64,000 nucleotides of DNA from NCBI GenBank assembly GCA_048938105.1, contig JBHLMN010000002.1:32001-96000 (forward strand), given 5' to 3'. Made by a program: the position numbers and the translations under genes. The notes below the pieces were generated by a model. The model made no database searches and was not told where the DNA came from. It was given only the letters and a program-made list of their open reading frames with translations. Below are positions 43,600 through 52,558 of the stretch, piece by piece; position 1 is the stretch's first letter; every line of letters starts with the position of its first letter. Origin of the DNA: Promethearchaeota archaeon. GTDB lineage: Archaea; Asgardarchaeota; Heimdallarchaeia; Hodarchaeales; Hodarchaeaceae.

Positions 43600-44793
43600 T
43601 TATTTTTTTTCTGTCTCAGATTCTGTTTCTTCCTTTCCTTCCGACATTACCTCTTTTTCTACCCTTTCTATTAACTCAAATTCTTCTAATCCTTCATTTT
43701 TTTCTGTTTTTACTTCCGTAACCTCTTCCTCTATATCCTTTCTTGTCTCTACTTCTTCTAGGTCTTCTTTTACTTCAGTCTCTACACCCATGGTTTTTTC
43801 ATCTTCCTCTACTTCTTTAGTTTCTTCTTCAACCTTTTCTTCTATTTCCTCCTCTAAGTCCTCTTCTTCCTCTTCATAATCACCCATTAGACGTTTTAAT
43901 CGCCAGAGCATTTGAAGTTTAAGCCGACGACTTTCATTATCGAAACCAAAGTCATAGGCAAATTTTGGTGTTGAGGTGTAGACTATTGATCTTGCACGTT
44001 TTTCTCCTACAATATAACCCCTAGCTTCAAGGCTATGGCAAATTTCATTAATCTTTATAGGTCCAATCTTCTTAACGATTTTTTTAACCATTGCCAAAGA
44101 AATTGGCTGACGATAGGCAATCTCAGTCATAATTCGCCTTTCTTCTGACGTCATGAATCGTTCAGGAACCAGGGATTGGAAAAATTCATGATAAATTGGA
44201 TTTAGTTGTAGAACCCAACGATCTTTGGAAATTTCTTCAATTACTATTGGTGAATTGTGCTTCCTACTTCTTGCAACCTTTCTCAAAGTGCGTTTAACGA
44301 GAGGTGACTCTTCTTGTAAACTTTCAATGAGTTCTGATGTATGTATGGGTCTTCCGACGGAAAATAAGGCGCCTTCAATTCGTTCTTCAAGACTAATCGG
44401 AATAAGCTCTGTTCCAATGGAACTTAATTGAGGAGTAACTAGTTCAGGTGTATCAGCCTGAACTTTTAAAAGTTCTGGGGATATAAAATCATAAATTGAA
44501 ACTTGTGTTTCAACTATTGCCTCTGCAAAGGGAAGGAAGTCCAAAATTGGTTCTACAGTTTTCGGTTCCTCTGGAATTGGCTCAGTAATAATTTTTGGAA
44601 TAGCTGCAAATCTTTCTTCGAAAGGAGTCTCAGAAGTAGAGAACTCTTCAATTACTTGAGCCTGAGCGTTCTCTGGAGTAACTTCAGGTGTTTCCTGAGT
44701 TTGAGGAGGTACTCTTACTTTAGATTCTAATTCCTCTTCAACAGCTTGTTCTTTCTTTTTATCCTTTTTTCGACGTCGAAAAAGACGGAACAT
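43600..44793 (-). CDS. scpB: ScpB/kite-family SMC subunit with long N-terminal extension and acidic C-terminal tail
   Basis: IEGALFSVGRPI, WVLQL, IAYRQPIS, YTSTPKFAYDFG tandem winged-helix core. Confidence 0.85.
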   Translation of the reverse strand: MFRLFRRRKKDKKKEQAVEEELESKVRVPPQTQETPEVTPENAQAQVIEEFSTSETPFEERFAAIPKIITEPIPEEPKTVEPILDFLPFAEAIVETQVSIYDFISPELLKVQADTPELVTPQLSSIGTELIPISLEERIEGALFSVGRPIHTSELIESLQEESPLVKRTLRKVARSRKHNSPIVIEEISKDRWVLQLNPIYHEFFQSLVPERFMTSEERRIMTEIAYRQPISLAMVKKIVKKIGPIKINEICHSLEARGYIVGEKRARSIVYTSTPKFAYDFGFDNESRRLKLQMLWRLKRLMGDYEEEEEDLEEEIEEKVEEETKEVEEDEKTMGVETEVKEDLEEVETRKDIEEEVTEVKTEKNEGLEEFELIERVEKEVMSEGKEETESETEKK

Positions 44794-44802
44794 GGTTTAT
44801 CC

Positions 44803-51900: not shown

Positions 51901-52558
51901 GAGTCCAGCGTTCTGCATCTTCTTTTTCTTTTCGTAATGATTCAACGCGTTTAGCAACTTCATTTACTAATAATTGAAGTTCATCCATTCTTCGTTGGGC
52001 TTCATCTAGCTCTATAAGAGCTGATCTCTTTTTTTCATCAAATTGTCCCACTCCTGCTAGGTTCTCCATCAATTCTCGACGTTGAATAGGATTCATCCCT
52101 ACAATCTCTCCCACCTGACCTTGAGCGATGATGTTGTAAGAATTTATGACATCTATTCCAGCAATACGAAGTTTATCTAAGATATCTGTGCGGGTAGTTC
52201 GTTTTCCATTTAATCTGTAGGTTCCTGAACCATTCTTTTTTAATTCACGGCTGACAATTACTTCCTCTTCTTTGAGAGGAATCGCATAATCAGAATTATC
52301 GAATATGATCTCAACTGTAGCCTTTTCTGCTGGTTTGCGACCTCCAATCCCATTATAGATAAGTCCAACCATCTTTTCTGCTCGCATCGACTTCTTAGAT
52401 AAGGCCCCTAAACAAAAGTTGACGCCATCTATGCTATTTGACTTCCCACTACCATTAGGTCCTACAATTACTGTAAATCCCTTGGCTAGAGGCATTCTGA
52501 CAGTACCAGGTCCATATGACTTCCACCCAGTCATTCTTATCTCCTTAATATGTACCAT
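48971..52558 (-). CDS. smc: Chromosome segregation protein SMC
   Basis: GPNGSGKSN, YNIIAQG, coiled coils, hinge (NFIPL..TVEGD..GIIYGG), PVNMRA, MSGGEK, YILDEIDAALD, VISHR. Confidence 0.95.
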   Translation of the reverse strand: MVHIKEIRMTGWKSYGPGTVRMPLAKGFTVIVGPNGSGKSNSIDGVNFCLGALSKKSMRAEKMVGLIYNGIGGRKPAEKATVEIIFDNSDYAIPLKEEEVIVSRELKKNGSGTYRLNGKRTTRTDILDKLRIAGIDVINSYNIIAQGQVGEIVGMNPIQRRELMENLAGVGQFDEKKRSALIELDEAQRRMDELQLLVNEVAKRVESLRKEKEDAERWTQLDQEILQLKALLISYSFHNNQQNASKFDEEIASIRTDQESMVNNRQQIDGNIEEITEKIRSLEDQTIRLETSLSEIRSSAEEKNIEKTKIEEKTEYNKKTIDSNEKRIKQLKERLDQIKRKTEEDIKTKEKLEETRKELQNKIEETQNQRTSIETELEQKNRQYEEIKNEYDDAERRYKVENDRLTKTQVSFEVSQNMVTAFQNNVNEYERRQKELEEQIQTSQLKSQELSRSLEEDNIKIEEARSKVGEVDQKKLNLESRIESLETESRELNDKYLVLKARIDTISSFMKSEEGKENPAVSFISTKTNDNEIQGILGEFQNLSSEGESLPTEVGHLSDAIITDTIDSALNCIQILKDNAVGAANFIPLEKFKLKTTDKFSNIVKKIREQNEVVNDLKQAANTWRKRGQTVSTVEGDVFYSNGIIYGGFHLAAAQETVDELRTEMNTTHEQRDIINRQLKEEQENKKRLHDLEKVINQSIDNLEKQIRDATIQLTQQENEISLYQNNMEKNKQELEPLQKQLQDRLKSREEQQKEMEFYEENVEKIATETKEIEERLEAADTRPLLEKMNQVEQQLGKIQGKLTGVESRIEALETSKGEKEQRSTETSNEINSVEVENANLTGELQVLEEQRLQLEEQLIKILENEEEVSKEMKDVKSDLGTQKKYQGQLIKDKEKLNEKIAKFEEKITEIKLQRERLTVELENLQNEALENNIEILPPDAEELKEVNESKITKEIDQKSDEKKRLEPVNMRALKEFQEENARYIELLDRRDILIEERQVILDFIEEIETEKYSVFMKVYRSVNKHFGLIFHELSGGDARLILEKDPKKGEDIFEGGMFIEAHPAGKKVASLESMSGGEKALTALAFIFAVQTVDAQPFYILDEIDAALDPMNVRRVAKLLHSMSRSVGQDEPDGKEVKKSIKSTPRAQFLVISHRDILMAWADRLYGCTNVKGLSSVFSIQMSEEKQLERAEGF

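Follow-up and report, generated by a model that had tools for sequence, protein, structure and literature searches.

The question addressed here is why the smc locus of a Hodarchaeaceae archaeon carries two different genes for the kite (kleisin-interacting tandem winged-helix element) subunit ScpB, and why a gene for an 800-amino-acid (aa) TrmB-type protein with very long predicted helices, called the rod below, lies on the opposite strand within this locus. The locus occupies positions 43600-52558 of the window, by which we mean the whole 64,000-nucleotide (nt) stretch of DNA that was analysed (Promethearchaeota archaeon, NCBI assembly GCA_048938105.1, contig JBHLMN010000002.1, positions 32,001 to 96,000 of the forward strand); the source genome is 5.85 Mb in 65 contigs. 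To our knowledge, the kites of all prokaryotic SMC complexes characterised to date are homodimers, and the replacement of these by a pair of unlike kites (Nse1-Nse3), or by hawks, is a step in the origin of the eukaryotic SMC complexes. Our reading of the sequence, to which we give a probability of about 0.55, is that this is the single condensin-type Smc-ScpAB locus of the genome, that its short and long kites, ScpBs and ScpBL, would form a heterodimer on one kleisin, and that the rod would be an independent nucleoid-associated protein. Two kites on one kleisin is the simplest reading because the genome has one canonical SMC, and profile searches of it found no second kleisin and no second canonical SMC.

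[quoted passage not shown]

The open reading frames (ORFs) in 43600-52558 confirm the five-gene arrangement and the orientations that had been claimed in an earlier note on this DNA, namely scpBL, scpBs, the rod gene, an scpA-like gene and smc (Table 1). The two kite genes are strictly tandem and 9 nt apart. The gap between the rod gene and scpBs had been given as 216 nt, which is right if the scpBs ORF is extended to the TTG at 45369 (44803-45369, 188 aa), but the orthologues conserve the ATG at 45363 and from this start the gap is 222 nt. All five genes are under purifying selection with ratios of non-synonymous to synonymous substitution (dN/dS) of 0.05-0.26 (0.09 for ScpBs and 0.26 for ScpBL) against the nearest genome, the one pair for which the ratio is usable, dS being saturated beyond it.

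The 1195-aa protein is a full-length SMC. It covers positions 1-1164 of TIGR02169 with 616 bits, without reaching the equivalog cut-off of 729, and gives 568.2 bits with TIGR02168, barely above the cut-off of 567.35; PF02463 gives 145.9 bits and the hinge model PF06470 only 18 bits. The smc gene is the sole TIGR02169 match in the source genome at E<=1e-30. The adjacent protein, which the earlier note had labelled ScpA, has no match to Pfam ScpA (PF02616) even at E<=1. In the sister family its gene stands between smc and scpBs in an uninterrupted operon, and a profile of 14 sequences of the scpA-like protein has a marginal match to the C-terminal domain of Pyrococcus ScpA (4i99_C, E 0.2). The C-terminal winged helix of its AlphaFold2 (AF2) model (pLDDT 70) resembles the kleisin C-domains 4i99_C, 5h66_C, 6qpq_B and 1w1w_E, and the alignments to these domains from Pyrococcus, Bacillus and cohesin have TM scores of 0.70-0.78 with weak E values of 0.02-0.08. 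The ScpA label has no backing from Pfam; kleisin identity is moderately supported by position, profile and fold.

Both kites match PF04079 (SMC_ScpB; cut-off 27.4), scpBs with 66 bits and scpBL with 56 bits, and both have profile matches to archaeal ScpB 6juv (7.6e-20 and 8.6e-20, respectively). The two are 19% identical to each other (hhalign probability 95.7), and clear orthologues of both are present in the sister family. The canonical IAYRQP-type core is retained in ScpBL, which also has acidic N- and C-terminal extensions, as do many Asgard ScpB proteins; ScpBs has neither extension. A kite phylogeny had been proposed as a check, and the maximum-likelihood tree of kite cores places ScpBs (100/99), ScpBL (95/88) and the canonical Asgard ScpBs from many families (95/91) in three well separated groups, but it is unrooted. 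A profile search of 399 Asgard genomes at E<=1e-28 found the ScpBs type in 21 of the 22 that belong to Hodarchaeales and in 0 of the remaining 377. The scpBs-scpBL pair is always adjacent, and throughout the order the two genes occur together in a 1:1 ratio. A single canonical ScpB (110-130 bits) is the rule in the other Asgard genomes searched, and the second copies that are listed lie on a different contig.

Among the Hodarchaeales genomes searched, only G017 has a canonical ScpB outside the locus; it carries an extra operon (L058, G017:C70) that encodes an SMC of 1501 aa, a kleisin-like protein of 389 aa and a canonical ScpB of 375 aa (116 bits). A contig binned with a metagenome-assembled genome of the genus Hodarchaeum has a second smc-scpA-scpBs-like-scpBL-like operon (L059, G012:C485:7000-20000) whose SMC is only 36% identical; this operon may be contamination from an unsampled tandem-kite lineage, or a second copy.

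Neither kite is an Nse1 or an Nse3. In the Pfam scan (E<=0.01) the kites match only PF04079, and PF07574 (Nse1) and PF01454 (MAGE) are not matched; a genome-wide search with the Nse1 and MAGE models gave best E values of 0.1-0.2, and these weak matches are to genes at other places in the genome. The PDB profile matches of the two kites at E<=10 include no chain of Nse1 or Nse3. This identity is rejected, and the parallel to Nse1/Nse3 drawn in the earlier note stands as an analogy between ScpB-like kites and that pair.

It could be argued that the two kites do not pair. Each might instead homodimerise, giving two alternative complexes (Smc-ScpA-ScpBs2 and Smc-ScpA-ScpBL2) with separate tasks, or one of them might work outside the Smc ring. 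We consider this unlikely. We know of no characterised prokaryotic kite that is not a homodimer (ScpB of B. subtilis and G. stearothermophilus, MukE), and this favours the idea, as does the fact that only ScpBL has long linkers with short conserved motifs, which suggests extra partners. In addition, where kite paralogues have been published for archaea, they are parts of different complexes (van Hooff et al., bioRxiv 10.1101/2024.01.07.573240). On the other hand, scpBs and scpBL are always in tandem and occur together throughout the order, a second kleisin or canonical SMC was not found in the source genome, and the other SMC-like ATPases of this genome sit with helicases, MoxR AAA+ or Dnd-like genes and not with kleisin or kite genes. 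The earlier claim of an asymmetric-kite complex is thus borne out as far as one Smc-kleisin set with two different kites conserved in tandem across the order; the heterodimer itself would be the step that is inferred.

A second SMC-kleisin-kite set was looked for and rejected: the SMC_N/ASRP matches on contigs C14, C15, C27, C31, C63 and C64 of the source genome have no recognisable kleisin or kite beside them, the small neighbours being judged by Pfam only, and the neighbours include helicases, MoxR AAA+, Rad50-type or Dnd-like genes. At L087 (G000:C64:5000-19000) the gene for an SMC/Rad50-like protein of 839 aa precedes those for a 184-aa protein, a MoxR-type AAA+ protein and a 150-aa protein. 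At L109 (G000:C63:76000-86000) the gene for an ASRP/DndD-like ATPase (244 bits, NF045487) precedes those for a PAPS-reductase/4Fe-4S protein and a methyltransferase; the group has the look of a Dnd-like set for DNA modification or defence and not of a chromosome SMC. The smc gene, the kleisin-like scpA and the two ScpB genes would make up a condensin-type Smc-ScpAB set, the only one found in the genome.

The earlier note had cautioned that kite duplication in archaea may already be published. Kite paralogues have indeed been reported: van Hooff et al. (bioRxiv 10.1101/2024.01.07.573240) describe archaeal ScpB-like and Nse1/3-related kites, with paralogues in separate operons with separate SMCs, and single out Hodarchaeales among the Asgard archaea for an Nse3-related kite. 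No paper describing tandem ScpB paralogues was found in the literature searched. Supplementary Table 3 of the same preprint gives Hodarchaeum mangrovi one kleisin and one ScpB-like kite that are not neighbours, which suggests that the second tandem kite was overlooked there; 'not neighbours' fits the intervening rod gene.

Table 1. Genes and features of the smc locus in window coordinates, with the loci elsewhere that are discussed in the text
Feature	Position	Strand	Remarks
scpBL, long kite	43600-44793	-	397 aa; PF04079
scpBL N-terminal MFRLFRRRKKDKKK tip	44752-44793	-	conserved
scpBL ScpB core	43882-44391	-	aa 135-304
scpBL Glu-rich tail			aa 305-397
scpBs, short kite	44803-45363	-	186 aa from conserved ATG; PF04079
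Divergent intergenic region	45364-45585	.	two separately conserved promoter-like blocks
TATA-like CTTTATATTG	45421-45430		scpBs-side promoter-like block
Purine-rich stretch + TAATTTATAC	45506-45515 (TAATTTATAC)		rod-side promoter-like block
GGAAGTGAGATA	45574-45585		rod side
TrmB-rod gene	45586-47988	+	800 aa
Rod winged helix-turn-helix	45586-45795	+	aa 1-70
Rod helix arm 1	45802-46647	+	aa 73-354; predicted, AF2
Rod turn	46648-46665	+	aa 355-360; predicted, AF2, low-confidence break
Rod helix arm 2	46666-47523	+	aa 361-646; predicted, AF2
Rod PLD-like TrmB C-domain	47545-47964	+	aa 654-793; predicted, AF2/Foldseek
scpA-like gene, putative divergent kleisin	48077-48934	-	285 aa
smc	48971-52558	-	1195 aa, full-length condensin-type SMC ATPase
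L087 ORFs	5660-8179, 5119-5673, 4209-5168, 3752-4204	-	SMC/Rad50-like + MoxR-type AAA+ cluster
L109 ORFs	3921-5813, 5810-7678, 7687-9885		ASRP/DndD-like set
f3 rod paralogue + Dna2-like sites	L041:10888-13875, L040:692-3694		likewise L042, L038

The rod protein and its linkage to smc

Residues 6-70 of the rod match the TrmB winged helix-turn-helix (wHTH) model PF01978 with 33.9 bits (cut-off 25.6), the Pfam scan also gives apolipoprotein-like helical repeats, and the PDB profile matches include 3qph and 5bqt at 2e-8. In a single-chain AF2 model based on 32 family members (pLDDT 76, pTM 0.32) a break at residues 355-360 falls exactly midway along the helical region. The top Foldseek matches are TrmBL2 (5bpd/5bqt), TrmB (2f5t/3qph) and PLD-fold nucleases; the C-terminal domain fits 2f5t_X with a root-mean-square deviation of 2.9 over 147 columns and Nuc/NucT with TM scores of 0.62-0.63, as expected of a PLD-like domain, and the translation, read by eye, has no HxK(x)4D (HKD) catalytic motif. 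No sugar-binding barrel was detected in the rod, and at 800 aa, with 23.9 bits against the TrmBL2 model NF041141 (cut-off 530), it is not a compact TrmB. The rod is a TrmB-family protein in whose predicted structure the short dimerisation helix is replaced by two ~280-residue helices, ~570 aa in all.

The orthologues in the genus are 799-800 aa, and they differ in length only by 7 aa inserted at residue 364, the predicted turn. Because of the central break and this length conservation the helices are probably folded back as a hairpin, an arrangement that could bring the wHTH and the PLD-like domain side by side at the same end of a long rod. As a test of the hairpin, indels placed symmetrically in both arms were tried and rejected, alignments of distant paralogues being unreliable; only the genus-level insertion at the turn is usable.

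Like TrmBL2 and TrmB (5BPD, 5BQT, 3QPH, 2F5T), the rod has an N-terminal wHTH and a C-terminal non-catalytic PLD-like domain; unlike them, it has 800 aa and not ~260-340 aa, and two very long helices in place of the short dimerisation helix. The model also recalls the architecture of SMC and Rad50 in that a long helical hairpin, turning at its centre, could bring the two terminal domains together, but the rod has no ATPase, hinge or zinc hook, and the resemblance is one of topology only, in a predicted single-chain model with a pTM of 0.32.

The orthologue group of the rod (at least 42% identity) consists of Hodarchaeales-type records only, annotated as HTH, TrmB or hypothetical. Other Heimdallarchaeia have more distant homologues, 750-910 aa long and present in one to several copies per genome. 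In family f3 a rod paralogue lies ~1 kb from a ~1000-aa Dna2-like protein (PD-(D/E)XK nuclease and SF1 helicase) that ends in a RING finger. In the genome nearest to the source genome a 142-aa ORF just downstream of the rod gene (L043:7946-8371; G003:C18:84020-84313) repeats the last ~100 residues of the rod with 84-86% identity, a partial tandem duplication of the PLD-like domain.

Does the rod work with Smc-ScpAB? It could do so as a DNA-bound roadblock or positioning factor, as a loader, or as a fifth subunit with a ~40-nm arm matching the Smc arm, and we regard such a functional tie as unlikely, though well worth pursuing. TrmBL2 is a nucleoid protein and the one archaeal protein known to stall Smc-ScpAB, and in T. 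kodakarensis it sets a domain boundary (PMC11840125); the best fold matches of the two end domains of the rod are TrmBL2 and TrmB. This likeness is at the level of the fold only, as the score with the NCBIfam TrmBL2 model, far below the cut-off, indicates. The tightly conserved length of the rod and the lack of another full-length family member in the source genome speak for the tie, and so does the behaviour of the locus where it was rearranged. The order smc-scpA, rod gene on the opposite strand, scpBs-scpBL is found on one contig in 15 of 20 other genomes of the genus and is cut or split by contig ends in 3 more. In G001 and G016 smc is elsewhere, and scpA, the rod gene, scpBs and scpBL are still together, so the block survived the one rearrangement that removed smc.

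Several observations oppose a tie. Within the genus collinearity extends over the entire 19-kb neighbourhood, with ~17 neighbour genes that include Ras-like GTPases and a major facilitator superfamily transporter; unrelated neighbours are thus just as collinear, synteny is not specific as proof of a rod-Smc link and was rejected as such, and it therefore says little about the rod. The rod gene is in the Smc locus only within the GTDB genus of the window. In the sister family (S146-22, a Dive96 bin) smc-scpA-scpBs-scpBL lie on one strand, uninterrupted and without a rod gene, and the closest rod homologue of that family (23-26% identity) lies among unrelated genes. No examined rod paralogue in other Heimdallarchaeia is near smc or scpB, and rod homologues persist in families for which the searches gave neither Smc nor ScpB. 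In the families f3 and f5 of the same class (G023-G039 and others), no genome searched has an SMC (TIGR02169, E<=1e-30), and the SMC-negative genomes include single-contig genomes that are 92-93% complete; PF04079 is matched in 1 of 26 f3 genomes, weakly (E 4.5e-4), and in none of 9 f5 genomes. The rod also evolves fastest in the block, with 42-82% identity compared to 69-90% for Smc, and the promoter-like blocks on the two sides of the divergent region are conserved separately, with a variable spacer and no shared operator. The synteny survey suggested in the earlier note therefore shows linkage in the genus itself, and not in the sister-family operon or among the paralogues elsewhere. Of the description of the rod as a wHTH/coiled-coil accessory partner, the TrmB wHTH and the long predicted helices hold, and the partner role is weak, the position in the locus being a property of one genus. 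We think it probable that the rod is an independent nucleoid-associated neighbour.

Two side observations concern this neighbourhood. Two Ras-family small GTPase genes (PF00071, 157-162 bits) at 41984-42508(+) and 43042-43581(+) of the window directly adjoin scpBL and remain collinear with the locus throughout the genus. In a 1.4-Mb single-contig record of the genus (L060, G007:C1:210000-226000) smc-scpA is kept, with a 27-residue remnant of the rod and no scpB match; this loss is probably a scaffolding or assembly gap.

The divergent intergenic region and the ScpBL tip

Members of the TrmB family are classical regulators, and the rod has a TrmB-type wHTH and a gene that is divergently oriented to scpBs-scpBL. 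From this it might be supposed that the rod is a transcription factor that regulates the kite genes and itself. An alignment of eight genus genomes makes this improbable. The intergenic region varies from 212 to 453 nt, with the variation in the spacer between the two promoter-like blocks, no conserved palindrome or shared operator lies between these blocks, and in G016 scpBs and the rod gene are separated by an insertion of 2.5 kb. In addition, a 570-aa rod is hard to account for in a simple repressor. A CGTAC/GTACG repeat was considered as the operator and rejected, being confined to the two closest genomes. A scan for sigma-70 promoters and terminators showed no enrichment over shuffled sequences, the models not being suited to archaea.

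The earlier note had also called one of the kites putatively membrane-targeted, and this claim is not supported. The N-terminal MFRLFRR+KK tip of ScpBL is conserved in both Hodarchaeales families (16 orthologues aligned) and is followed by an acidic and Pro-rich linker in which the same alignment shows the conserved motifs ETPFEExFA, LDFLPF and FISPE. A tether of the Smc complex to the membrane through the MFRLFRRRKK peptide would draw on this conservation and on the three hydrophobic residues and basic cluster of the tip next to an acidic linker, an arrangement that we take to resemble, loosely, the membrane peptides of the FtsY type. However, ScpBL has no hydrophobic segment (maximum Kyte-Doolittle value 1.07 over 19 residues), and in a six-frame translation of the source genome the MFRLFRR tip is on no other protein, so that there is no sign of its being a targeting signal of general use. 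It is also missing from the extended ScpB proteins of other Asgards. DNA, RNA or the acidic tails of ScpBL itself could just as well be what a basic tip binds, and the linker motifs resemble protein-docking peptides. We consider the membrane tether very improbable, and DNA, RNA, its own acidic tails and another protein are just as conceivable as partners of the tip.

Proposed kite pairing and its significance

The proposal that ScpBs and ScpBL pair on one kleisin can be set out as follows. The kite gene is present in Hodarchaeales as two anciently diverged ScpB-like paralogues in tandem, of which ScpBs is a stripped-down, strongly diverged copy and ScpBL the one that retains the canonical core motifs next to its acidic extensions. 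Most likely one ScpBs and one ScpBL would fill the two kite positions on one kleisin, and such a heterodimer would fix in genes an asymmetry already present in the ScpB2-ScpA complex. The pairing would parallel that of Nse1-Nse3 and would have arisen independently. The rod gene, with its own putative promoter, would have been inserted into the operon, between scpA and scpBs, in an ancestor of a single genus, and its product would most likely act as a nucleoid-associated protein in its own right; positioning or stalling of Smc, as by TrmBL2 in Thermococcus, is possible. A bolder combination, in which an obligate heterodimeric kite evolved independently, one genus recruited a 40-nm TrmBL2-like rod as a positioning or roadblock factor for Smc, and the N-terminal peptides of ScpBL dock the complex to the rod or another structure, is quite unlikely as a whole.

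Some points weigh against the proposal. The evidence that the 285-aa protein is a kleisin, which comes from operon position, a marginal profile match and a predicted fold, is moderate. The kite tree, being unrooted, does not show whether ScpBs and ScpBL are sisters. Jeon et al. (PMC7055376; cited in PMC11840125) reported that ScpB of Thermococcus onnurineus did not bind ScpA in vitro, and because of this the membership of kites in archaeal complexes is itself debated. As for the independence of the rod, the source genome has no other full-length protein of this family, and the rod gene stayed with scpA and the kites in G001 and G016; both facts fit a functional tie to Smc.

With regard to known systems, the set resembles Smc-ScpAB (B. 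subtilis; Smc-ScpA of Pyrococcus/Thermococcus; T. onnurineus ScpB 6JUV) in its full-length SMC, its adjacent kleisin-like protein with a predicted C-terminal winged helix and its ScpB kites, and the gene order smc-scpA-scpB is matched in the sister family. It differs in having two very different tandem ScpB paralogues and not one, a kleisin too divergent for Pfam ScpA, an SMC below the TIGR02169 equivalog cut-off, and one kite whose N-terminal tip is basic and conserved and whose acidic extensions are long. Two paralogues with one kleisin argue, at the level of genes, for a departure from the homodimeric kite of Smc-ScpAB. As in Nse1-Nse3 of Smc5/6, two paralogous kites would presumably sit on one kleisin, to judge from the tandem genes and their 1:1 co-occurrence, but unlike Nse1-Nse3 and the archaeal Nse1/3-related kites both are ScpB-like.

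The conserved smc-scpA-scpBs-scpBL operon bears on the debate whether archaeal ScpB joins Smc-ScpA, and the rod is of interest because TrmBL2 is the only known archaeal roadblock for Smc. Hodarchaeales are among the closest known archaeal relatives of eukaryotes. If a condensin-type complex with two kites is indeed used throughout this order, then the step from a homomer to a heteromer would have occurred independently in archaea, and the two-kite Smc would be a simple system for asking what kite asymmetry achieves.

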